Origin: a virus | Taxonomy: Duplodnaviria > Caudoviricetes | Virus record (IMG/VR): IMGVR_UViG_3300017649_000007 | Span: 1-41,507 of that record | Length of the DNA: 41,507 bases | Strand: one strand, 5' to 3' | Shown: positions 1 to 41,507 of the stretch, one piece after another | Layout of the letters: every line of letters starts with the position of its first letter | Numbering within the stretch: the stretch's first letter is position 1 | Position numbers and translations under genes: made by a program | Notes under the pieces: generated by a model | The model's input: the letters and a program-made list of their open reading frames with translations, nothing else | Databases searched by the model: none | What the model was told of the DNA's origin: nothing

Positions 1-155
1 TCCCCGTTTCCCGCCGCTCAGAAATTGGGACCCCCTCTCCGCCAAATCCGTTGGGAGGTAGCGGGTTCGGGGCAGCAGGACCGCCAATTTTGATAGCTCT
101 GAGCTGCGAGGATGCGATGTTCAGCCGGAAAGCTAAGGTAGGCAAGGAGAGCCGA

Positions 156-839
156 GTGAGCACACAGTCACCCCAGGTCGAACCCGACCCGGAACACATG
201 CAGCCTCACGTCCATGTCGCGCCAAGTGCCTTGGCAGGCAGTGGGGATGCGGAGCCCGATGGCCCACAGTTGCTTTGGGTCCATCCGACGCACCTGAACC
301 TGTATCACAGGAACCCTCGACGCGGGAAGCCTGACGAGATCGCCAAGAGCCTCCGCGCCAACGGGCAGTACAAGCCCATCGTCGTCAACAAGGGCACGTT
401 CACGAACAGGCCGTGGGAAGTGTTGGCAGGCAATCACACCCTGATCGCCTTCCGCGACCTGCTCCAAGCCGAGCCGCACGACGTGCGATGGCAGAAGATC
501 CTGGTTCACCTCGTGGACGTGGACGATGATCGCGCGGCGCGGATCGTGGCGGCTGACAACCGCACGGCGGATCTTGGCGACTACGATCAGGACGCGCTGC
601 GTGACCTGTTGACCGGCCTCGACGGCGACCTGTTCGGCACCGGCTACGAGGACGCTGACCTGGCAAAGCTGTTGGGCGGCGACGACATCGGTGACGAGGG
701 TCCCATCTCGGGTGATGCTGAGACGGGGGAGACCCCGCGCACCTTCGGTGTCGTGGTGGAGTGCGAGACGGAAGCGCAGCAGGTCGCCTTGCTGGAACAG
801 CTTGAGGCTGAAGGCTTCAACGTGCGGGCGCTGATGTGA
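156..839 (+). CDS. ParB/Srx-like N-terminal domain protein
   Basis: Motifs NPRRG..EIAKSL..NGQYKPIVVN, VLAGNHT and ADNRTADL are typical of phage ParB-like domains. GTG at 156 follows AAGGAG (144-149); the ORF track starts at 51. Confidence 0.8.
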   Translation: MSTQSPQVEPDPEHMQPHVHVAPSALAGSGDAEPDGPQLLWVHPTHLNLYHRNPRRGKPDEIAKSLRANGQYKPIVVNKGTFTNRPWEVLAGNHTLIAFRDLLQAEPHDVRWQKILVHLVDVDDDRAARIVAADNRTADLGDYDQDALRDLLTGLDGDLFGTGYEDADLAKLLGGDDIGDEGPISGDAETGETPRTFGVVVECETEAQQVALLEQLEAEGFNVRALM

Positions 840-840
840 C

Positions 841-1950
841 ATGAAGGCTGACATCACCCTCACCGTCGAGCCACCGCGATCAGCGCGGGCGCGGCAGGTG
901 TCGGGCCTCTTCGATGTGTCGTTGGATGAGAAGCTGACGGCAAGCTGGAGCCATGATCTGCCCATCGAGCAGCAGGACTGGCAGGTGGGCCTGATCGTCG
1001 GCCCGTCTGGCGCTGGCAAGTCGGTGCTGGCGAATCGACTGTGGCCCAACATGGTCCGCGAATCGCTCGACTGGAGCGACAGGGCGATCATCGAGCACTT
1101 CCCTGCCGACATGAGCATCCACGACGTGACGGGCCTGCTCACGTCCGTTGGGTTCGGCAGCGTGCCCGCGTGGCTGCGTCCGTACTCGACCCTGTCGAAC
1201 GGTGAGCGGTTCCGCGCCGACATGGCTCGCCTGATTGCCGAGTCGAGCGACGACGATATCGTGGTGGTGGACGAGTTCACGAGCGTTGTTGACCGGCAGG
1301 TGGCTCGCGTTGCCTCCCATAGTGTTCAGAAGGCCATCCGGCGCAGCGGTCGGCGGTTCGTGGCGGTGACCTGCCACTACGACGTGATCGACTGGCTACA
1401 GCCCGATTGGGTCTACGACGTCGGCAGCCAATCGTTCGCCTGGAGGTCGGTTCAACCCCGGCCAGGCATGCGATTCGAGATCTATGAGGCGAGTCCGCGC
1501 GACTGGCCGGTGTTTGCTCGACACCACTATCTGACAAGCGAATTGTCAAAGGCCGCAAGGTGTTTCACAGCGTGGCTCGACGGCGACCTGTGCGGGTTTA
1601 CCTCCTACCTGCACTTCCCGCACCCGAAGACGCGGAGCATCAAGATTGCTCACCGGATCGTGGTGCTGCCCGACTATCAGGGGCTCGGGATCGCCTCGCG
1701 CATGAACGACTGGACCGGGGAATACCTTGCGGCACGAGGCTATCGGTATCGCGTGGTCTCCGCGCACCCGGCCATGATCGGGATGTTCATGCGGAGCCCG
1801 CGCTGGAGGGAGTGTGGACGCGCCAAAGGCGTTGCCACCTCGAAGAAGTCGATTATGAAGGCGGCGAACCTATCCTCACGCCGTCTGGCTGTGCGCTCGT
1901 TCGAGTACCAGCCACCGGCTGAAGGGAAATCCAATGGCAGGCAACAGTAA
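841..1950 (+). CDS. ABC-type ATPase fused to C-terminal GNAT acetyltransferase (putative DNA-modification enzyme)
   Basis: Walker A GPSGAGKS, ABC signature LSNGE, Walker B VVVDEF, H-switch TCHYD; GNAT motif A RIVVLPDYQGLGIA. Confidence 0.85.
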   Translation: MKADITLTVEPPRSARARQVSGLFDVSLDEKLTASWSHDLPIEQQDWQVGLIVGPSGAGKSVLANRLWPNMVRESLDWSDRAIIEHFPADMSIHDVTGLLTSVGFGSVPAWLRPYSTLSNGERFRADMARLIAESSDDDIVVVDEFTSVVDRQVARVASHSVQKAIRRSGRRFVAVTCHYDVIDWLQPDWVYDVGSQSFAWRSVQPRPGMRFEIYEASPRDWPVFARHHYLTSELSKAARCFTAWLDGDLCGFTSYLHFPHPKTRSIKIAHRIVVLPDYQGLGIASRMNDWTGEYLAARGYRYRVVSAHPAMIGMFMRSPRWRECGRAKGVATSKKSIMKAANLSSRRLAVRSFEYQPPAEGKSNGRQQ

Positions 1951-33739: not shown

Positions 33740-34087
33740 ATACTCACCCTCGTGCAGGGCGACTACGGCACTCTCGCCGTAGTCGGCCCTGCCTGAGTCG
33801 ACCAGGGTCTCAGCAAGATCGGAGATCGACTCGGAGTAGGGGACGCCATCGTGGATCTGCCACGTGCAAAAGCGTCCCCGCATAAGAGTGGAACCCTGTG
33901 TCTCCCAAAGGCCCTCACTCTCGGCGTCTACGTGATAGTAGACGCCATTTTTTGTGTCTATAGTCGGGTTCGCTTGCGCCACAACGGGAACGGCCAGCGC
34001 AGTCGCAGCCGCTGTGACACCGGCAACAGCCAGGCGATGCGGATGCATCACCTGAAATGCTTTCAGTATCTCGTTCCGTACGCTCAT
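33698..34087 (-). CDS. Putative secreted protein (start ATG 34087 or 34048)
   Basis: Signal peptide RLAVAGVTAAATALAVPVVAQA; G.W.T.G...C.W...C.PW pattern resembling small actinobacterial secreted proteins. Confidence 0.65.
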   Translation of the reverse strand: MSVRNEILKAFQVMHPHRLAVAGVTAAATALAVPVVAQANPTIDTKNGVYYHVDAESEGLWETQGSTLMRGRFCTWQIHDGVPYSESISDLAETLVDSGRADYGESAVVALHEGEYLVSWNCLPWTKID

Positions 34088-34253
34088 GTGATGCAGGCTA
34101 CACCTGTTTCCGCAGCTCAGCCAGTTGACCGGGATCACGCGGGAATCTGCGAACGCAGGTTTCCCAGTTCTGTAGCAAATGTCGGCAAGCTTCTGACGTG
34201 CAAGGTGCGAGCCAGAGCAAATGCTGAAAAGGCGTGCATGTCCCCCACACTTT

Positions 34254-34262
34254 TGATATTCT
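34254..34262 (+). promoter_or_regulatory. Candidate extended -10 promoter driving the leader and cassette array
   Basis: TGATATTCT fits TGnTAnnnT; a stable hairpin begins 6-8 nt downstream, where a start site would fall. Confidence 0.45.
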
Positions 34263-34267
34263 GTGAT

Positions 34268-34606
34268 GTTCGGTTCAGCGATGAGCCGACGGGCGACCAG
34301 CCGCTCCCACGAGCGAGAACCCGCCCCCAGCACTTTGACAACTACACAGAGACGAAAGCAGAGGGTGAGAGTATCGCGCCCGCAATGCGATTCACGCCGA
34401 TGAGGCTGTAGGTGGGTGTTCATCTGAGGCTCACGCCACCGGGATCGCAAGCGCGAGAGTGTAACCCGCTGTAGTAGTTGAGAATGTGTCTCCTTTCCAA
34501 TCTTTCTCCAATTGCCCCCCAAAGGGCAGGGTTGCCAACGGGTTCCGATCCGTTGGCTTCCCCGTGTTTTGGGAGTCAAAGCACCACTTCAAGATTGGAG
34601 ATCACA
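34268..34606 (+). ncRNA. Candidate long structured leader or small RNA
   Basis: GCGA-tetraloop hairpin 34270-34289; CGGG..CGCTC/GAGCG..CCCG domain; long-range pairing 34339-34349 with 34469-34480; hairpins 34514-34528, 34529-34562 (UCCG loop) and 34564-34584; ends in AAGATTGGAGA. Confidence 0.55.
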
Positions 34607-34846
34607 ATGGCAGCAATTGTCAGCAAGCGAATCCGCGCGGGCCTCTACGAGGTCACGACCGACACGGGTCGTACGTTCACCGTCGAGCAGATCCGCACCG
34701 ACACACCCGGCTACGGCGTCGAGCGGCGCTGGTGGGTCAACCCGTCCGACGACGGACCCCACCCCGTGTTCGACCCGTTCGCCACCAAGGGTGATGCACT
34801 CGATGCCATTACGTTGATGTTCAGCTCTGACAAAAGCTGGATGTGA
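34607..34846 (+). CDS. Hypothetical protein (cassette 1)
   Basis: ATG follows AAGATTGGAGA; 79 aa. Confidence 0.75.
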   Translation: MAAIVSKRIRAGLYEVTTDTGRTFTVEQIRTDTPGYGVERRWWVNPSDDGPHPVFDPFATKGDALDAITLMFSSDKSWM

Positions 34847-34851
34847 CGTTC

Positions 34852-34931
34852 TGAGTGCGACTCAGCCACACAGACTTCCGAGCCTGTGTGTGCTGCTGGT
34901 GTACTCAGCACCACCACAACAAGATTGGAGA
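34852..34931 (+). repeat. Structured intergenic element A1
   Basis: TGAGTG..CAGCCACACAG/CTGTGTGTGCTG..GGTG-TACTCAG-CACC..CAACAAGATTGGAGA; 34848-34931 is identical to 36286-36369. Confidence 0.95.
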
Positions 34932-34936
34932 GAACA

Positions 34937-35212
34937 ATGAAGGTTTGCGCACACGAGAACCTGGGGCCGTTCCAGAACGTCCACTTTCGCGCCGACTCGA
35001 TCAAGCAAGCGGTCGAACGGTTCCGGGAGGATCTGGAAGGCGTCTACGGCACGCTGGAAGGCATCACCGAGCGCACCGGGGAGGATCATGCCCCGGCGCT
35101 GGGTGTGTACCCGCAATGCCCAGATTGCGACTCCCAGATGAACTTCCACGACTACCCACTGGGTCTGTACCGGGTGGGGCCGCGTGGAGGCATACAGCGC
35201 ATGTTCGGATGA
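34937..35212 (+). CDS. Hypothetical protein (cassette 2)
   Basis: ATG after element RBS; its stop is the first codon of element B1; CPDC motif. Confidence 0.75.
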   Translation: MKVCAHENLGPFQNVHFRADSIKQAVERFREDLEGVYGTLEGITERTGEDHAPALGVYPQCPDCDSQMNFHDYPLGLYRVGPRGGIQRMFG

Positions 35213-35295
35213 ATCAACGGCAGGCACACAGTCTTTCCGGGGCCTGTGTGTCTGTAGATGGATTCAACCATCAACCCTCACAACAAGATTGGAGA
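35210..35295 (+). repeat. Structured intergenic element B1
   Basis: TGAATC..GCAGGCACACAG/CTGTGTGTCTGT..GATGG-ATTCAA-CCATC..CAACAAGATTGGAGA. Confidence 0.93.
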
Positions 35296-35300
35296 CGACA

Positions 35301-35591
35301 ATGTCTGACTCGAAGAATCCCTACATCCTCCGTGCCGACGAGGTGAAGCCGGGTGAGATCGTGGTCGACAAGCACGGGAGCCTTTGGGTTCTCGATGAAT
35401 TGGGCGAGCGCCCGCAGTGGCGCTACATCGTCCCCGAGGATTCGACCCGCGAACCGGGTTACTCGTGGGACGGGTTCGACGCCCTGCCAGAGGCTTACGA
35501 GCCGTACACAGTGCTCGATGAGGGCGCGTGCGCCGTCATCGGCAAGTGGCTCGTAGCCGAGGCTCGTCGCCGCAAGGTTTACGTTGTCTGA
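35301..35591 (+). CDS. Hypothetical protein (cassette 3)
   Basis: ATG after element RBS; its stop begins element B2. Confidence 0.75.
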   Translation: MSDSKNPYILRADEVKPGEIVVDKHGSLWVLDELGERPQWRYIVPEDSTREPGYSWDGFDALPEAYEPYTVLDEGACAVIGKWLVAEARRRKVYVV

Positions 35592-35674
35592 ATCAACGGC
35601 AGGCACACAGTTCTTTCGGGGCCTGTGTGTCTGTAGATGGATTCAGCCATCAACCCACACAACGAGATTGGAGA
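35589..35674 (+). repeat. Structured intergenic element B2
   Basis: Near-copy of B1; tail reads CAACGAGATTGGAGA. Confidence 0.93.
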
Positions 35675-35679
35675 CAAAC

Positions 35680-35961
35680 ATGTACGTTGAGACCCGCACC
35701 GACGCATCCGAGGTTTTGGAAACCGTTCTGCGCGAACTGATTCACATGATCATCCGTTTGCGTAACACGGTCCACACCAAGCGGAACATCAGCTCCTACG
35801 TCACCAATCCGCAACTGCGGCAGATGGCGAACGAGCTGCGCGGAGCCTACGTGCTGGCTTGCCGGGTGGCCGGAGATCCCGACCGCATCCCGCTCGAGGT
35901 TCATGAACAGTACGGCGAAGCCGTGCGAGCGGCCCAAGAGTTGGTTGGCAAGCTCGCTTGA
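35680..35961 (+). CDS. Hypothetical helical protein (cassette 4)
   Basis: ATG after element RBS; its stop begins element A2. Confidence 0.75.
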   Translation: MYVETRTDASEVLETVLRELIHMIIRLRNTVHTKRNISSYVTNPQLRQMANELRGAYVLACRVAGDPDRIPLEVHEQYGEAVRAAQELVGKLA

Positions 35962-36041
35962 GTGTGACTCAGCCACACAGACTCCCGAGAGCCTGTGTGT
36001 GCTGCTGGTGTACTCAAGCACCACCGCAACAAGATTGGAGA
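35959..36041 (+). repeat. Structured intergenic element A2
   Basis: A-family copy with +2 and +1 nt insertions in the two loop regions. Confidence 0.95.
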
Positions 36042-36046
36042 CGACA

Positions 36047-36292
36047 ATGGCTAAAGCAGATCGCCGCGTCAGCGTGACCGACCTCAAGACCTGCAAGCGT
36101 TGTGGCGTGGGCAGTCTCTCTTGGGAGACCTCGCGCCGCAACGGCAAGCCCTATCTGTGCATTGTTCGACGCACACGGGAAGGCTTGTACGCCATGCCCT
36201 ATCAGCCTCACAAGTGCCATCCCGACGACGTTGCCCGCATGGACGCTGCGCGCGCCCAGGACGAAGCCAACGGGATTCACTTCGAGTTCTGA
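36047..36292 (+). CDS. Small putative Zn-binding protein (cassette 5)
   Basis: CKRC...H.C motif; its stop begins element A3. Confidence 0.75.
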   Translation: MAKADRRVSVTDLKTCKRCGVGSLSWETSRRNGKPYLCIVRRTREGLYAMPYQPHKCHPDDVARMDAARAQDEANGIHFEF

Positions 36293-36369
36293 GTGCGACT
36301 CAGCCACACAGACTTCCGAGCCTGTGTGTGCTGCTGGTGTACTCAGCACCACCACAACAAGATTGGAGA
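36290..36369 (+). repeat. Structured intergenic element A3
   Basis: Identical to A1. Confidence 0.95.
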
Positions 36370-36374
36370 CGACG

Positions 36375-36890
36375 ATGACCACCTACTATGTCCCCGCCGA
36401 TCACACCGCCACCGAGTGGCGAGAGATGGCGAAGGATTGCTACCGCCGCGAGCAGGAATCGTTCGAGCGGAGCGACACAGATGGTTTCCTGTCCCAGTGG
36501 GCCGCAAACCAATTCGCTAAGATGTACGAGCGGATGGCAGAGCTGGCCGCAAACGGGGGCCGTGCGAACCTGCATTGGCTCTACGAGCGGGACAACGAGA
36601 CCGGCGAGTGGGTGCCCGTCGAGAACTGGCGCTGGGTTGAAACGCGTTACGGCATGAGCGTTCTCGTGGTTCGTGAAAGCCGCGAGAACGTGTTTTTCAA
36701 CCCGTCCGAGGCTCGCAAGGCTTCGACGCGTCAGCGCAACGACGAGCGCAAAGGCTTCCGCTGGGGCACAGTGGAAACCGAGGTCGTCTGCCGCTTCGGC
36801 GGCGGCGCGTACAACATGATCGTCACCGAGCGGAAGCGCAACGCTCCGCTGACGGTCGTTTCAACCGCTCATTACAGCGATTGGGACTGA
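36375..36890 (+). CDS. Hypothetical protein (cassette 6)
   Basis: ATG after element RBS; 171 aa; its stop begins element A4. Confidence 0.8.
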   Translation: MTTYYVPADHTATEWREMAKDCYRREQESFERSDTDGFLSQWAANQFAKMYERMAELAANGGRANLHWLYERDNETGEWVPVENWRWVETRYGMSVLVVRESRENVFFNPSEARKASTRQRNDERKGFRWGTVETEVVCRFGGGAYNMIVTERKRNAPLTVVSTAHYSDWD

Positions 36891-36964
36891 GTGTGACTCA
36901 GCCACACAGGCTTTCGAGCCTGTGTGTGCTGCTGGTGTACTCAGCACCGCAACAAGATTGGAGA
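36888..36964 (+). repeat. Structured intergenic element A4
   Basis: Perfect CACACAGGCT-TTCG-AGCCTGTGTG stem. Confidence 0.95.
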
Positions 36965-36969
36965 CGACA

Positions 36970-37140
36970 ATGACCAAGATCACGACCGTTGCTGCCCGCT
37001 CGATCCGCGTGGGCACCGTGTTCGCCGATGGCGCTACCGTCATGGAGCGCCACACGGCAGAGGGCCTGCTCAAGTTCGTCTGTGATGACGGGCGCGAGAT
37101 GACCTATCGCTCCAGCGACCGTGTGAAAGTCACGTACTGA
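36970..37140 (+). CDS. Small hypothetical protein (cassette 7)
   Basis: 56 aa filling exactly the space between two elements. Confidence 0.75.
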   Translation: MTKITTVAARSIRVGTVFADGATVMERHTAEGLLKFVCDDGREMTYRSSDRVKVTY

Positions 37141-37214
37141 GTGTGACTCAGCCACACAGACTTCCGAGCCTGTGTGTGCTGCTGGTGTACTCAGCACCGC
37201 AACAAGATTGGAGA
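37138..37214 (+). repeat. Structured intergenic element A5
   Basis: A-family copy that starts at the upstream stop codon. Confidence 0.95.
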
Positions 37215-37220
37215 CGACAA

Positions 37221-37508
37221 ATGATCAAGTTCGTTCACATCAAGGGCGACGACGCCTACCGCGCCATCGGTGCCCAGCACATTTACTGGGCGCAGAGGGA
37301 TGGGAAGCGTTGGCAGGTAAGCGTTCATAACCGGGTCGACTTCCGTGAGCTGACGCTCACAGCGCCGGGACAAGCGCTCGACACTGAGTGGTTCGACCGT
37401 CTGAGTGAGTGCAAAACCTATGCGCAGCACTACGAGGCCAACGTTGACCACGAGAGCCGTCGCTACCTGAACCGCTCAACGCGAGCCGTGCTCGCCACGA
37501 TGGAATGA
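37221..37508 (+). CDS. Hypothetical protein (cassette 8)
   Basis: ATG after element RBS. Confidence 0.75.
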   Translation: MIKFVHIKGDDAYRAIGAQHIYWAQRDGKRWQVSVHNRVDFRELTLTAPGQALDTEWFDRLSECKTYAQHYEANVDHESRRYLNRSTRAVLATME

Positions 37509-37517
37509 AGGCACCTC

Positions 37518-37597
37518 TGAGTGTGACTCAGCCACACAGACTTCCGAGCCTGTGTGTGCTGCTGGTGTACTCAGCACCGCCACAACAAGATTGGAGA
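37518..37597 (+). repeat. Structured intergenic element A6
   Basis: A-family copy. Confidence 0.95.
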
Positions 37598-37602
37598 CAA
37601 CA

Positions 37603-37833
37603 GTGAAGGTTACCGAGATTCGAAGGCTCGCAATGCAGTCCACACGCTATGGCTGGTACGACCACGGTTCAACCGTCGCCGCCACCTGCCCACTGTGCCG
37701 CAAACACGTCGTGACTCAGTACAGCATGTGGGCAACCGCCCCTAACGGTAAGCGCCTCAGCAAGATTCAACAGGCGCGCAATGGGGTGGCCGACCATCTC
37801 GCCTCCGAGTGTGTCGAAACTGTCAACGCCTAA
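37603..37833 (+). CDS. Small putative Zn-finger protein (cassette 9)
   Basis: GTG after element RBS; CPLC...H...C motif; its TAA begins element C1. Confidence 0.75.
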   Translation: MKVTEIRRLAMQSTRYGWYDHGSTVAATCPLCRKHVVTQYSMWATAPNGKRLSKIQQARNGVADHLASECVETVNA

Positions 37834-37906
37834 GCCGGTAGGAGGCGCAGCTACTCGCGTGGGTAGTTGCGTCTCTGGTCTGCTTAGACCGCAACAAGAT
37901 TGGAGA
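37831..37906 (+). repeat. Structured intergenic element C1
   Basis: TAAGC..GGAGGCGCAGCTACTC/GGGTAGTTGCGTCTCT GGTC-TGCTTA-GACC GCAACAAGATTGGAGA. Confidence 0.92.
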
Positions 37907-37911
37907 ACACA

Positions 37912-38244
37912 ATGAACACCAGCTATGTTCGTCAGCGTACCGGGGCTCCCGAGGCAGTTGCACAGGGCCGCACGCAGATCACCTACAACGGTCGCACCCG
38001 AACGGCACGTACAGCCGATGGGGTGGAAATCGTTGAGGGCCTGCGGGTCTACACCAACGACCTGGAGCGCGGCGTGATCCGTCTCGACCGCGCCGAGTGG
38101 GAGTGGTACGGATCAGAGGGCAAGTACCATCTGTGGTTCGAGGTCGAGGTCGATCACAACTACAAGGGCGAGCCTGTGAACGGGGAGCGCGTGCTCCAGT
38201 CTGACGACCGGGTTGCCACACGGTTCGAGGGGGTACCGGCATGA
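37912..38244 (+). CDS. Hypothetical protein (cassette 10a)
   Basis: ATG after element RBS. Confidence 0.75.
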   Translation: MNTSYVRQRTGAPEAVAQGRTQITYNGRTRTARTADGVEIVEGLRVYTNDLERGVIRLDRAEWEWYGSEGKYHLWFEVEVDHNYKGEPVNGERVLQSDDRVATRFEGVPA

Positions 38245-38447
38245 GCAACTTCAAGGCAACGGAAGTCGTTGCACTGCATATGTATCCGCACGGTGTGGGC
38301 TCGTTCGCCCACTTCGATGTCGTCGCCGTGACAAGCAACGGCAAAGAGATTTTCCAAGGGTACGCAGTGAGCTACGACGTGGTGAAGGCACGGCAAAAGC
38401 AAGCCTTCCCATACGCTTCCGTGGAGATCATCGAACCCGCGCTCTGA
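38241..38447 (+). CDS. Hypothetical protein (cassette 10b)
   Basis: ATGA coupling and GAGGGG RBS; its stop begins element C2. Confidence 0.7.
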   Translation: MSNFKATEVVALHMYPHGVGSFAHFDVVAVTSNGKEIFQGYAVSYDVVKARQKQAFPYASVEIIEPAL

Positions 38448-38522
38448 GTGGGTAGGAGGCGCAGCTGTCCAGTGTGGGCAGTTGCGTCTCTGGTTCACTC
38501 AGAACCACAACAAGATTGGAGA
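38445..38522 (+). repeat. Structured intergenic element C2
   Basis: TGAGTG, then a 17-bp stem, then GGTT-CACTCAG-AACC and the tail. Confidence 0.93.
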
Positions 38523-38529
38523 CAAGAGA

Positions 38530-38913
38530 ATGGCAACAGTAAAGGTGTACCTGAATGTCAGCCGGGATAGCTTCTTCGGCTTCTACAACGACTTCGGGAA
38601 GCCAGTCCTAGTCCCTGCCATCACTTTTGAGCTGGACGATGAGCTCGCTTCCGACCTGCAATGCGGTGCGCCGTATGCAGCCTTGGAGCGGGTGTTCGAG
38701 CAATTGAACATCGGCGGGCATGACGGCGGGCCAGAGGGTAAGCCGTGGACCGTCGAGTACCGACAGAACGGCTACCGTAGCCTATCGGTGGGTGACGTTG
38801 TCGTGATCGGGGAACTTGCGTACGCCGTGGAAAGCTCTGGCTGGCGCTACATCCCGACCGACGATCTGACGGCGGCGCTGCAACGCGGCGTTGAGCAGGG
38901 GGTGGGCAAATGA
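38530..38913 (+). CDS. YodL-like domain protein (cassette 11a)
   Basis: LERVFEQLN...RSLSVGDVVV...AY.V.S.GW matches the YodL-like motif as recalled. Confidence 0.65.
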   Translation: MATVKVYLNVSRDSFFGFYNDFGKPVLVPAITFELDDELASDLQCGAPYAALERVFEQLNIGGHDGGPEGKPWTVEYRQNGYRSLSVGDVVVIGELAYAVESSGWRYIPTDDLTAALQRGVEQGVGK

Positions 38914-39230
38914 TCACGCTCACATACTGTTCCGAGTGCGGGGCAGACTTGAGCAACGGGTACGCGCATGCCCGACCGTGCTGCTATGAGCAGATGCGGA
39001 TCGTGCAGCCTAACAACGACTGGCGCGGCCTTCGGGTGTGGCCGAAAGAGGGCTACACCAAATACAAAGGGCCGCGTGTTGATCGGGCAGGCGAGCCCGT
39101 GCCGAGCGGCACCGTACTTGGGTGCAACGGCATGGGCAGCGCGTACATCAAGTGGGACAATGGCTCTGTGTCATTGCTCCCGGTCAACGAGATCGAGACG
39201 TACGGGCAACGCGTCCACGTCGAGCTCTGA
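38910..39230 (+). CDS. Hypothetical protein (cassette 11b)
   Basis: ATGA coupling; CSEC motif and SH3-like G.V.....IKWDNG; its stop begins element C3. Confidence 0.7.
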   Translation: MITLTYCSECGADLSNGYAHARPCCYEQMRIVQPNNDWRGLRVWPKEGYTKYKGPRVDRAGEPVPSGTVLGCNGMGSAYIKWDNGSVSLLPVNEIETYGQRVHVEL

Positions 39231-39307
39231 GTGGGTAGGAGACGTAGCTGCCAACATGTTTGGCAGTTGCGTCTCTGGTTCACTCAGAACCGCAACAAGA
39301 TTGGAGA
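39228..39307 (+). repeat. Structured intergenic element C3
   Basis: Ends resemble C2; upper stem resembles C4-C6. Confidence 0.93.
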
Positions 39308-39312
39308 GAACA

Positions 39313-40254
39313 ATGACAACCACCATCGTCAAGGATCGTCGTCGCAGCACTACGCGCCGTTCGGCCAAGCCTCGTCGTGATGTCACGTCCAGCGACTTGC
39401 CGCTACGTGATGACGGGAAGGTCGACCTGGTCAAGGTTCTGGAGTTCGCACTCACAGCACCCGGCCATCTGTCGAAGTGCTACAACAGATTCCATCGTTA
39501 TTCGCTGCTCAACATCATCATGGTGCTGATGCAGACCGGCAAGATGGAACCGATGGCGACGTTCAATCGCTGGAAGTCGCTGGGACGAAACGTCACAAAA
39601 GGCAGCAAGGCGCTGTGGGTCAACCACCCGCGCTTCGCTCCCGAGCGTGACTCTGACGGCCTCCCAGTGGTCGGCAAAGATGGCAAGGTCGAGATGAAGG
39701 TTGTCGGGTTCTACCCGAAAGCCACTGTGTTCCAACTGCATCAGACAGAGGGGCCGGATCTCAAAATGCCTGAACTGCCAGAGTGGGACCGCGAGCAAGC
39801 CGCCAAGGTGCTTGAGCTGAACGAAGTTCCGTTCGAGTACCACGACGGCAACGCCCAGGGCTACAGCACAGGCCGCGACTACGCGATCAACCCTGTGGCT
39901 GAGTACCCGATCAAGACCCTGTTCCACGAGTGGGGTCACATCTTGTGCGGTCACACAACCGGCGACGACAACGCTCCGATGCATCGTGGCGTCCGCGAGT
40001 TCCAAGCTGAGGCAGTCGCTTTGCTCGTCTGCAAGGAACTCGATGTCAAAGAGTACGACCCAGCCGCCTGCCGTGGGTACATCCAGAACTGGCTGCAAGG
40101 CCAGAGCGCCGAGTACCTGGACGACGACGGCAACCTGGCCGTGACGGATGCTGTTGTGCGGCAGATCTTCGCCGCCGCCGACAAGATCCTCACAGCCGGG
40201 CGGAAGTCGCACTACGACAAGATGGAGGCCGACCGTGATAACGCGCAACGTTAA
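39313..40254 (+). CDS. ardC: ArdC-like antirestriction protein (ssDNA-binding domain plus zincin metallopeptidase)
   Basis: YSLLN..ATFNRWKSLGRNVTKGSKA N-domain; HEWGH zincin motif; REFQAE; YIQNWL. Confidence 0.8.
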   Translation: MTTTIVKDRRRSTTRRSAKPRRDVTSSDLPLRDDGKVDLVKVLEFALTAPGHLSKCYNRFHRYSLLNIIMVLMQTGKMEPMATFNRWKSLGRNVTKGSKALWVNHPRFAPERDSDGLPVVGKDGKVEMKVVGFYPKATVFQLHQTEGPDLKMPELPEWDREQAAKVLELNEVPFEYHDGNAQGYSTGRDYAINPVAEYPIKTLFHEWGHILCGHTTGDDNAPMHRGVREFQAEAVALLVCKELDVKEYDPAACRGYIQNWLQGQSAEYLDDDGNLAVTDAVVRQIFAAADKILTAGRKSHYDKMEADRDNAQR

Positions 40255-40381
40255 CGGCAAGTGGATCTGCCACTGCGGCAACGATGCCCGTAACGACGGC
40301 TCAGAGTATGACTGGGTGTGCGAACAGTGGCCGTTCTGCGAACAGGAACGGCCAGAGCTGCAAGCACCCTGGTTGGACTGA
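40235..40381 (+). CDS. Small Cys-rich protein (cassette 12b)
   Basis: GGAGG before GTG 40235; CHC...C.....C pattern; its stop begins element C4. Confidence 0.6.
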   Translation: MITRNVNGKWICHCGNDARNDGSEYDWVCEQWPFCEQERPELQAPWLD

Positions 40382-40457
40382 GTAGGTAGGAGGCGCTGCT
40401 GCCAATATGATTGGCAGTAGCGTCTCTGGTCTACTTAGACCACAACAAGATTGGAGG
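40379..40457 (+). repeat. Structured intergenic element C4
   Basis: TGAGTAG..GCGCTGCTGCCAAT/ATTGGCAGTAGCGT..GGTC-TACTTA-GACC and the tail. Confidence 0.93.
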
Positions 40458-40465
40458 CAAACAAA

Positions 40466-40627
40466 ATGGATGTTCAAGCGACCTACGACGAGCTTGCCGA
40501 TCTCACCAACCAAGCCCTATCTGGCTGTGAGGTCGACGCCGTCCGCATGGCCGAACTCTTTGAGTCGCTTGACTGCTGGCTCAAGGCGCGCGGTTATCTG
40601 CCGAAGTCATGGGCAGAGGGCCGGTGA
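40466..40627 (+). CDS. Small hypothetical protein (cassette 13a; absent from the ORF track)
   Basis: ATG after element RBS; translates to MDVQATYDELADLTNQALSGCEVDAVRMAELFESLDCWLKARGYLPKSWAEGR (53 aa). Confidence 0.7.
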   Translation: MDVQATYDELADLTNQALSGCEVDAVRMAELFESLDCWLKARGYLPKSWAEGR

Positions 40628-40632
40628 TCACA

Positions 40633-40941
40633 ATGGCTACCAAAGTGATTGCCAAAGTGCCCACGTACAGCAGGCAGTACCGCGAAGCCAGCCTCGAAGA
40701 GCTGCGCACCAGAGACGATCTGGTGTTTAGCGACATCGAAGAGGACACGGCAGCCGACACGGTCACGGTCTACTACACAACCAAGATTCGTCAGTGGTGC
40801 GGCGCACTGCGCAAGGTCGGGATCGACCCAGAGATACTTGCCTGGGTCCCGAACCACGGCAGGGGTGAAACGCGGCTCGAACTGTTGGAGTCAGGCAAGT
40901 GGACACTCGTGGATGTGATCAACGATGAACTCAACGGCTAG
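40633..40941 (+). CDS. Hypothetical protein (cassette 13b)
   Basis: Follows 13a directly (alternative start GTG 40624); ends just before element C5. Confidence 0.7.
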   Translation: MATKVIAKVPTYSRQYREASLEELRTRDDLVFSDIEEDTAADTVTVYYTTKIRQWCGALRKVGIDPEILAWVPNHGRGETRLELLESGKWTLVDVINDELNG

Positions 40942-40943
40942 GT

Positions 40944-41023
40944 TGAGTAGATAGGAGACGCTGCTGCCAAACATGATTGGCAGTAGCGTCTCTGGTCTAC
41001 TTAGACCGCAACAAGATTGGAGA
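40944..41023 (+). repeat. Structured intergenic element C5
   Basis: 40941-41023 is identical to 41425-41507 (83 bp). Confidence 0.95.
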
Positions 41024-41028
41024 CAACA

Positions 41029-41421
41029 ATGTGCAAGATCATAGGGGCCGACCCATACGTCACACCTGACGACCGGGATCGGGAACTGTTGGCGCAACGT
41101 GCAACCCGTCGAGCCGAGGTCAACGCTCCACGGTCGGGTGACTACGTCGTTTTCACAGACGGCGTGAAGCGCCGGATCAGCTCCCTGTGGGACGGCAATG
41201 TGCAAACGTCGGACGGCGGATCGTGGTACCTGCTGACGAGCGGTGACGCCTCGTTCTCCGGGTCGCTACATCCGCCCGTGCGACGAGAATTCCTGACCGA
41301 TTCGAGAGAGACAGAGCCAGCGTCGTTTTGGTTCTTCCATCACGATTTGGCGCAGGCGCACAACGCCGTCCACGTCGAGCTGCGCGTCCGTGTCTGGACC
41401 GCAAGCACAACGGCACCCTAG
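41029..41421 (+). CDS. Hypothetical protein, DUF4121-like (cassette 14)
   Basis: PRSGDYV...SFSGS...FWFFHHD..AHNAV.V...VRVW resembles the DUF4121 pattern as recalled. Confidence 0.5.
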   Translation: MCKIIGADPYVTPDDRDRELLAQRATRRAEVNAPRSGDYVVFTDGVKRRISSLWDGNVQTSDGGSWYLLTSGDASFSGSLHPPVRREFLTDSRETEPASFWFFHHDLAQAHNAVHVELRVRVWTASTTAP

Positions 41422-41427
41422 CTGGGT

Positions 41428-41507
41428 TGAGTAGATAGGAGACGCTGCTGCCAAACATGATTGGCAGTAGCGTCTCTGGTCTACTTAGACCGCAACAAGA
41501 TTGGAGA
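41428..41507 (+). repeat. Structured intergenic element C6 (window ends at its tail)
   Basis: Identical to C5. Confidence 0.95.

Follow-up and report, generated by a model that had tools for sequence, protein, structure and literature searches.

A window of 41,507 nucleotides (the whole stretch of viral DNA analysed here) holds 15 copies of a structured RNA element in four geometries, in which a long stem and a small hairpin draw on the same nucleotides and appear to be mutually exclusive. These elements probably act as processing sites: if an RNase III-type enzyme cuts the long stem at its central mismatch, the mRNA downstream would be released with its 5′ end fully paired, so that the element would supply its own refolding cap. 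The locus is an early array of co-directional small genes in a mycobacteriophage-like genome, and cultured relatives carry the repeated element too.

Two folds of the repeated element

The elements are 60–85 nt long and variable in sequence, with covarying pairing. Each consists of a long nested hairpin starting from or near the upstream stop codon, followed by an A/C-rich leader and then a ribosome-binding site (Table 1). In 21 of the 31 elements compared, the 5′ arm opens with the stop codon of the upstream gene; of the 14 window copies preceded by a gene, 10 show this arrangement. The sequence-only reading of this DNA had listed 14 elements, all of which stand, but had overlooked the first (Z). 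Its claim that divergent families share one uncatalogued plus-strand RNA structure was upheld, and all of the base pairs that it quoted for the arm, the loop and the stems were found in the sequence.

Table 1. Positions of the elements and associated features in the window
Feature	Position	Strand	Remarks
Putative SigA-type promoter, extended −10	34234–34262	+	Recognized by eye; upstream of the array; consensus scan negative
Structured leader (conserved), candidate non-coding RNA in its own right	34330–34505	+	Common to the window and the related contig G001
Element Z	34512–34584	+	Long stem; the alternative hairpin (8 bp) starts at 34564; fourth geometry
A/C-rich leader with conserved Shine–Dalgarno motif, 15 copies	34590–41506	+	One per element, on its 3′ side; first 34590–34600, last 41494–41506
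Element A1	34852–34912	+	Small hairpin starts at 34898
Element B1	35210–35272	+	4×5 internal loop; small hairpin starts at 35257
Element B2	35589–35651	+	Small hairpin starts at 35636
Element A2	35959–36022	+	Small hairpin starts at 36007
Element A3	36290–36350	+	Small hairpin starts at 36336
Element A4	36888–36948	+	Small hairpin starts at 36934
Element A5	37138–37198	+	Small hairpin starts at 37184
Element A6	37518–37578	+	Small hairpin starts at 37564
Element C1	37831–37890	+	Small hairpin starts at 37877
Element C2	38445–38506	+	Small hairpin starts at 38492
Element C3	39228–39291	+	Small hairpin starts at 39277
ArdC-like anti-restriction gene, ArdcN	39313–40254	+	Sole array gene matching Pfam
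Element C4	40379–40441	+	Small hairpin starts at 40428
Element C5	40944–41007	+	Small hairpin starts at 40994
Element C6	41428–41491	+	Small hairpin starts at 41478

The long stem contains approximately 20–37 pairs, with a weak centre (mismatch, G-U) approximately 10 pairs above the base and at least 11 below the loop. The small hairpin begins at the G of this centre and reuses the lower-stem nucleotides of the 3′ arm. Compared with dinucleotide shuffles, the 31 elements folded with z-scores of −2.2 to −9.4 (median −5.0), and none of 200 shuffles was as stable as the original for six elements folded whole as the plus strand. In the alignment of C copies, 13 of 24 long-stem pairs had changed on both sides, as had 12 of 19 in that of A copies; none of 500 shuffles reached either count, a result not to be read as a probability, since the copies are related. 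For the small hairpin, the closing pair was G-C in each of the 20 distinct versions, and pairs of four types occurred at the fourth position. Taken singly, these hairpins stood out modestly from chance, with a median null fraction of 0.05 (0.05 or less in nine of the 20, and 0.65 in one), and in one Kumao copy the small hairpin was not clearly present.

The two folds share at least two stem nucleotides in 29 of the 31 elements, and one nucleotide in the other two, both B copies. Among 18 held-out copies from cluster M phages, the central G is followed by G in five, which makes a U-G pair in the long stem and a G-C pair in the small hairpin; in the other 13 it is followed by C, which makes G-C in the long stem and C-G in the small hairpin. 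All 18 copies therefore have one base that is compensated in both helices, indicating that both folds are selected and mutually exclusive. In 29 of 31 elements, the long form was predicted to be more stable than the combination of inner stem and small hairpin (median, −4 kcal/mol), while the open form was more stable in Z and in Kumao K111; in the A, B and Z copies, the gap between the two folds is only a few kcal/mol.

The arm and the hairpin loop had earlier been placed in a single pseudoknot-like fold on account of their covariation. This covariation is real, and five arm bases do complement the 4–6-nt loop in A, B and C copies; however, the pairing of the 5′ arm runs on through the strands of the small-hairpin stem, forming an ordinary nested helix, so that the long stem explains the covariation and the small hairpin is an alternative fold. 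Covariation was also detected at pairs unique to the nested form. Nor is the loop the partner of the arm in every copy, since the arms of Z, G0, G8 and several Kumao copies pair with the small-hairpin stem instead. The simultaneous crossing helices that define an H-type pseudoknot were not found, a shortened, loop-only form being conceivable for A and B, and in C copies a 5-nt linker would have to bridge approximately 10 pairs. A real pseudoknot that cleaves itself as a ribozyme or blocks a 5′ exonuclease could draw on the invariant core of the C geometry, in which an A-G mismatch occurs in 17 of 18 held-out copies and the adjacent G-U and G-C in all 18. Few bases are invariant, however, when all four geometries are compared, and this reading appears improbable. 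A search of Rfam 15, including its ribozymes and xrRNAs, gave no match at the gathering score; matches to microRNA precursors and frameshift sites fell far below the cut-offs. The C-type internal loop was considered as loop A of the hairpin ribozyme, which we take it to resemble, and was rejected, as no second domain was seen by eye and no Rfam match was obtained. An extra small hairpin at the extreme start of A copies was likewise discarded; it is not conserved, being lost in G001 copies with an altered arm.

With RNA energies, the plus strand folded better than the minus strand in 24 of 31 elements and in 18 of 18 from cluster M, and G-U pairs made up 98 of 759. With DNA energies, the plus strand was better in only 15 of 31. 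The G-U pairs, and a strand preference seen with RNA but not DNA energies, argue against single-stranded DNA recombination sites of the integron attC type, moved by a nearby tyrosine recombinase. Integron cassettes have a stop codon within the site and swappable genes, and the array is similar; moreover, gene order and content vary among relatives, and a tyrosine recombinase lies downstream of the array in the related locus L117. That recombinase scored 49.7 against an integron-integrase cut-off of 265, with a match confined to the C-terminal 42 residues, and it adjoins a repressor gene containing a tRNA-like segment, an arrangement usual for phage integration cassettes. Serine integrases are found beside the arrays in Kumao, Cuke and cluster M (IPhane7 and Aziz). 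Taken together, these observations make recombination sites very improbable.

Candidate cleavage and refolding

In the favoured model, the array would be transcribed as one early transcript in which the long stem folds first, and a host endonuclease, probably RNase III, would cut the 3′ strand immediately 5′ of the central G. The upstream mRNA would then retain a 3′ hairpin, while the downstream mRNA would snap to the small hairpin with zero unpaired 5′ bases, a cap that may shield the 5′-monophosphate end from RNase E sensing and from RNase J. In passages of PMC1540722 and PMC3867540, RNase III has a footprint of approximately 22 bp and needs a distance of 11 bp or more between cut and loop, and internal loops lead to single-strand cuts and a protective 3′ hairpin. 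A passage of PMC3997798 describes base-paired 5′ ends as withstanding 5′-dependent decay, and M. smegmatis as possessing both RNase E and RNase J. The long stems (20–37 pairs, with about 10 on the base side of the centre and at least 11 on the loop side) are long enough by the rule given in the passage of PMC1540722, and a mismatch lies within −1 to +1 in all 25 distinct copies.

Similar long intercistronic hairpins are found in the early mRNA of T7, where the RNase III sites (R1.1 and others) contain an internal loop, undergo a single-strand cut and leave a protective hairpin at the upstream 3′ end (passages of PMC8708148, PMC1540722 and PMC6938266). The present elements resemble R1.1-type sites in the long hairpin with an internal loop (4×5 in B copies), cleavage being so far a prediction here. 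They differ from T7 sites in their repetition (at least 15 copies), in having four geometries and in the stop codon within the stem. They also have a second covarying hairpin on the 3′ arm, a candidate downstream cap, whereas the T7 passages mention no refolding. In Streptomyces coelicolor, RNase III cuts both sides of the internal loop of the intergenic rpsO-pnp hairpin (passage of PMC10126417). That hairpin is alike in being an intergenic target of an actinobacterial RNase III at internal-loop edges, but it is a single, destabilizing chromosomal site involved in autoregulation, and the passage describes no alternative cap fold.

The sequence rules of the E. coli enzyme gave mixed support for the predicted cut. 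Applying the rule of no G-C pair at both proximal-box positions, a cut at the central G was the best of 11 registers, agreeing with the rule in 15 of 25 distinct copies, but in 0 of 10 of the A geometry, and two other registers scored 13 and 12. At proximal-box position 2 in the 18 held-out copies, the lower pair was not G-C in 17, compared with seven for the upper pair (G-C in 11). The lower pair is mostly G-U rather than A-U, and the rule is that of E. coli and may not be that of the mycobacterial enzyme. Following a simulated cut at the central G, the pairing of the 5′ G was 0.9 or higher in 27 of 31 elements, compared with 10 of 372 at other registers, a difference that is partly circular because this G was defined by the small hairpin. 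A switch hiding the ribosome-binding site was considered and rejected, the predicted pairing of the site being alike before and after the cut.

The partial fit to the E. coli rules, and a conserved core of mismatch and wobble that resembles a protein determinant, are consistent with a site bound or cut by a phage protein, or with a put-like RNA acting on RNA polymerase, instead of a host RNase III site. However, the element occurs in phages with few array genes in common, and cluster AC phages have one copy each, so that a host enzyme is the simpler account and a phage-protein site seems quite improbable.

The position of the stop codon in the arm suggests instead a ribosome-operated switch or insulator for which cleavage is not obligatory: a terminating ribosome would melt the 10-pair lower stem, whose length may be close to the cover of such a ribosome, and the small hairpin would form, the open form then stabilizing, insulating or coupling the next gene. 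The small energy gap in the A, B and Z copies agrees with such a switch. However, 10 of the 31 elements do not lie at a stop codon, Z and its counterpart in G001 are preceded by a non-coding leader, the predicted Shine–Dalgarno pairing is nearly equal in most copies between the uncut RNA and the released 3′ part, and the tRNA mimics that fill the equivalent slot in relatives suggest cutting. We thus regard a switch operating in place of cleavage as unlikely. The switch may also be combined with cleavage and determine whether cutting takes place. With regard to the functions proposed in the sequence-only reading, the processing site agrees with the favoured model, and a nuclease site that refolds into a cap is more likely than a ribozyme or an isolated RNase J block.

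Relatives and tRNA mimics in the equivalent slot

Among cluster M phages, 28 records carry the element, and it is also present in Kumao and cluster AC phages. In the arrays of clusters AC and R, the slot is filled by mimics of the tRNA top half (an acceptor plus T arm of 11–12 bp, with a T-loop), each followed by a hairpin and a ribosome site. We counted 12 of these mimics in MrMiyagi, 14 in Cuke, 13 in Papyrus and none in the window; the arrays of MrMiyagi and Cuke also include one hairpin element each amid the tRNA mimics, while in Kumao the mix is reversed. Both types share the slot from stop codon to ribosome site, the trailing hairpin, the A/C leader and a predicted cut leaving a paired 5′ G. 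In contrast to the hairpin elements, the mimics have a tRNA-like shape that would point to RNase P rather than a long double-stranded stem. No prior description of tRNA top-half mimics in cluster AC or R arrays was found in the literature.

A hairpin element precedes the gene at 34937 in the window and in MrMiyagi; in Papyrus, a tRNA mimic takes its place. Similarly, the same gene is found behind differing element types in the window and G001, and the same element precedes differing genes in MrMiyagi and Cuke. The contig joints at element borders have short sides and unassigned inserts. In the favoured model, the repeats would also be promoter-less plug-in slots, with a stop codon at one end and a ribosome site at the other, whose genes are likely swapped by recombination.

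Repeated regulatory cassettes flanking small genes are also known as PeSLs in T4-type phages, where repeats with a promoter and a terminator lie between small non-essential genes and allow modular shuffling (PMC2839356). The sigma-70-like promoter and terminator stem-loop that define each PeSL unit were not found at any element, neither promoter-like nor U-tract terminator-like sites being detected there by a scan whose consensus covers part of the mycobacterial promoters; the present elements are two-state RNA folds. In cluster K mycobacteriophages, the SAS/ESAS sequences combine an unusually conserved ribosome-binding motif and a linked upstream element at many small genes, with a role described as unknown (passage of PMC7302621). 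As far as the passage covers them, SAS/ESAS and similar actinophage motifs are DNA motifs or short inverted repeats, in contrast to the 60–85-nt covarying RNA described here. Our literature search, whose reach did not extend to the main 2014 cluster M genome paper, found no description of the element.

Relatives were scarce in contig collections. An exact-motif scan of viral and metagenome contigs gave mostly single chance matches, with L030 as the only array among 44 loci, and a scan of 97 loci gave arrays only in L117–L119 and the window itself. A protein-based search of viral and genome contigs returned two distant loci and then none, and the element models had no match in six further loci. 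No element was detected in the whole records of LadyBird, Argie and Muddy (C model) or of Papyrus (both models), and the array proteins of the window had no match in two cluster M stretches.

If the cut-and-refold cap is real, it would offset the usual cost of endonucleolytic processing, namely, an unstable product with a 5′-monophosphate, and the repeated intergenic elements of mycobacteriophage accessory-gene arrays gain a concrete and testable function. Since the elements occur in cultured phages of M. smegmatis, they are directly accessible to experiment; dozens of natural variants could define the substrate rules of mycobacterial RNase III and RNase P, and the elements could serve as insulators in polycistronic expression constructs for mycobacteria. 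More speculatively, there may be a modular RNA grammar, in which early anti-defence arrays are converted into capped single-gene mRNAs via interchangeable handles for host nucleases, either the self-capping two-state stem or the tRNA top-half mimic. In the stem form, the stop codon would lie within the switch and the terminating ribosome would set cutting; at the extreme, the mismatch core might itself be a protein-free cutter.

Array organization and flanking signals

Apart from the ArdC-like gene, the array genes are small, with functions mostly unassigned. At the position in G001 equivalent to the putative promoter of the window, a clearer −35/−10 pair was found. The structured leader between the putative promoter and element Z has no Rfam family and was unmatched in 10 other phage loci. 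In an RNA run available as contigs only (X15), depth was 15.7 over the leader (34280–34505) and 2–4 elsewhere, values that are uninformative on RNA ends or levels because the DNA contigs break at the same place.

A scan of the array, which does not cover all mycobacterial promoters, gave no promoter-like sites, and none of six terminator-like sites coincided with an element. In L117, the array extends past the position of the window end with two more elements, followed by a terminator-like hairpin that was detected by folding and is absent from the terminator-scan list.

Fold of the intergenic elements

The small-gene array of the window contains 15 copies of an A/C-rich leader with a Shine-Dalgarno motif, each preceded by a structured element. 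The sequence-only reading had listed 14 of these elements at correct positions, and the base pairs it quoted are present in the sequence; a further element, Z, was found 5' of the first array gene. The pseudoknot-like fold proposed for the 14 was not recovered, as their minimum-energy fold is instead a single long nested hairpin, formed by continuous pairing of the 5' arm with the loop and then the stem of the small 3' hairpin.

We analysed a set of 31 copies: 15 from the window, 2 from L117 (a metagenome contig extending the array), 11 from G001 (a related viral contig) and one each from the cultured phages MrMiyagi, Cuke and Kumao, seven Kumao copies of irregular geometry being kept out of the counts. 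All 31 copies folded better than shuffled sequences (z from −2.2 to −9.4). The long form was more stable than the inner stem plus small hairpin in 29/31 copies, and the long form and the small hairpin had at least two stem bases in common, also in 29/31. G-U pairs accounted for 98 of the 759 pairs. With RNA energies the + strand was more stable than the − strand in 24/31 copies, a preference that was gone with DNA energies (15/31). Covariation of the long stem was far above controls in both alignments. The closing pair of the small hairpin was G-C in 20/20 distinct versions, with compensatory variation inside, and copy by copy this hairpin was just modestly above chance.

In the G001 array, five elements had extra hairpins 3' of the small hairpin and ahead of the ribosome site, and several elements carried long insertions at the stem tip. 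The length of the stem tip is thus free and the core fixed.

Two helices in cluster M phages

Covariance models trained on the copies from the window, G001, L117, MrMiyagi, Cuke and Kumao identified whole arrays in IPhane7 and Aziz, two cultured cluster M phages absent from the training set. DNA matches to one cluster M element were found in 28 records, all of which we take to be cluster M. In the 18 best held-out copies, both-side changes were observed at 20/24 long-stem pairs, in an alignment fitted to the model. The base following the central G, at which the small hairpin starts, was G in 5/18 copies, forming U-G in the long stem and G-C in the small hairpin, and C in 13/18, forming G-C and C-G in these helices, respectively. 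Since one base is kept paired in two helices, both helices are selected and their full coexistence is impossible. In Z, in the G001 copies G0 and G8 and in several Kumao copies, the partner of the 5' arm is the small-hairpin stem itself. These two observations establish that the folds are exclusive, in elements also present in cultured phages, and that the conserved entity is a two-state element. A loop-only pseudoknot could be a folding intermediate in copies of the A and B geometries.

Geometry of a putative processing site and tRNA mimics

In all four geometries (A, B, C and Z), the small hairpin begins at a G in the weakly paired centre of the long stem. In A, B and C copies, 10 bases separate this G from the stem base and at least 11 pairs lie above it; a mismatch occurs at or adjoining it in 25/25 distinct copies. 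RNase III is described as having a footprint of ~22 bp with a cut-to-loop minimum of 11 bp, and internal loops as restricting it to a one-strand cut that leaves a protective 3' hairpin (PMC3867540, PMC1540722); T7 RNase III sites are treated in PMC8708148 and PMC6938266. The element geometry matches this footprint. The Streptomyces coelicolor enzyme is described as cutting an intergenic hairpin at both flanks of an internal loop (PMC10126417). The sequence rule for Escherichia coli RNase III is A-U/U-A at the fourth position (PMC6212723), and similar rules are indicated for Bacillus subtilis (PMC11780869). The E. coli rule gave mixed results: a cut 5' of the central G was the best of 11 registers (15/25 copies; two others gave 13 and 12). 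At this cut the rule fails in 10/10 A-geometry copies, and the upper position is G-C in 11/18 held-out copies.

The array of the cluster AC phages MrMiyagi and Cuke and of the cluster R phage Papyrus is likewise placed after the lysis genes, and its spacers contain tRNA top-half mimics (12, 14 and 13, respectively). Each mimic has an 11–12 bp acceptor plus T stem, a T-loop and a short spacer, mostly with GG, and is followed by a 7–9 bp hairpin and the ribosome site; most are without an anticodon arm. The mimics received no ARAGORN tRNA call and no Rfam call, and neither the window nor the G001 stretch contains any. MrMiyagi and Cuke each have a single A-geometry hairpin amid the mimics, 5' of unrelated genes. 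The Kumao elements are hairpins for the most part, plus one mimic detected by pattern and another seen by eye. The gene at 34937 is preceded by a hairpin in the window, as is its counterpart in MrMiyagi (62% identical), and the Papyrus counterpart (36%) is preceded by a tRNA mimic, demonstrating the interchange of hairpins and mimics; the ArdC-like gene lies behind a C element in the window and behind an A element in G001. The tRNA shape between genes probably points to RNase P cutting, which would likewise leave a paired 5' G. As hairpins and mimics occupy one slot, the simplest common function would be mRNA cleavage that yields a protected 5' end. RNase E sensing is described as being resisted by paired 5' ends, and Mycobacterium smegmatis as having RNase E and J (PMC3997798).

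The array would be made as a single early transcript, from a promoter read by eye (the promoter scan was negative). Each element would then be cleaved at the predicted position, with RNase III as the candidate enzyme, and the downstream mRNA would be stabilised after the cut. The position of the elements between stop codon and ribosome site is established. The upstream stop codon is the first triplet of the arm in 21/31 copies, so the switch may be ribosome-operated; the ribosome site is predicted to be equally accessible in both states. Integron-type recombination at the elements is unlikely. In contigs of near relatives, joints and loose ends coincided with the borders of elements; because these joints have short sides, the suggestion that genes are swapped at elements rests mainly on protein comparisons.

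Relation to described systems and genome setting

Rfam gave no family match in the window, Kumao, MrMiyagi or Papyrus loci. A literature search, most papers being judged by titles and abstract openings, found no description of the elements or mimics, and the portion consulted of a mycobacteriophage review contained nothing on either (PMC9262239). Among described systems, the nearest are the RNase III sites of T7, the PeSL cassettes (PMC2839356) and start-associated sequences (PMC7302621). We conclude that the elements form a genuine RNA family that has not been catalogued. It is best classed with the intercistronic processing sites of phages, as a variant in which a refolding cap is built in; a new pseudoknot class was not retained on present evidence. 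A 2014 J. Virol. paper on the cluster M phages Bongo, PegLeg and Rey reportedly discusses repeated sequences, so the cluster M repeats may already be known as DNA motifs.

The window covers the left-hand portion of a siphovirus genome, with terminase, portal, protease, capsid, tape measure, tail and lysis genes. Its terminase shows 67% identity to Mycobacterium prophage terminases and 58% to those of Gordonia phages. The lysis genes are followed by a non-coding gap and then the co-directional array; no phage-collection record covers 80% of this array. Array genes mostly match families of unknown function only; one encodes an ArdC N-terminal domain with a match to an anti-restriction family. 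The HEWGH motif of this protein, suggesting a metallopeptidase-like domain, is C-terminal, and phage records gave just two weak matches.

Coordinates of features in the window and related loci
Feature	Location	Remarks
ArdC-like gene	window 39313-40254	C-terminal HEWGH motif; 65% identical copy in G001
Element Z	window 34512-34584	
Structured leader, candidate non-coding RNA	window 34330-34505; L155:11575-11745 (- strand; G001 array)	Common to G001, some compensatory changes; unmatched in 10 other phage loci
Hairpins in lysis-array gap	window 33783-33835; 33923-33946	Latter terminator-like, + strand
Two genes 5' of terminase	window 51-1950	One without Pfam match; other with GNAT acetyltransferase domain and P-loop stretch
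Tyrosine recombinase and repressor gene	L117:3524-5053	Repressor gene holds tRNA-like segment on its opposite strand
Mimic arrays between early genes	L049:7661-15952 (MrMiyagi); L052:4282-13195 (Cuke); L051:7515-13769 (Papyrus)	12-14 mimics each
Different ~400-nt conserved non-coding leader 5' of mimic arrays	L049:6450-7200; L052:3400-4070; L051:6300-6770	Rfam search of two of the three loci gave no match
Kumao array	L048:3463-8794	Seven copies of short conserved hairpin repeat; three tandem, one within tRNA mimic

L117 is identical to the last 2606 bases of the window and extends the array by two further elements. These are followed by a strong hairpin between A and T runs, an opposite-strand tyrosine recombinase and a repressor, a pair that we take to resemble integration-dependent immunity cassettes.
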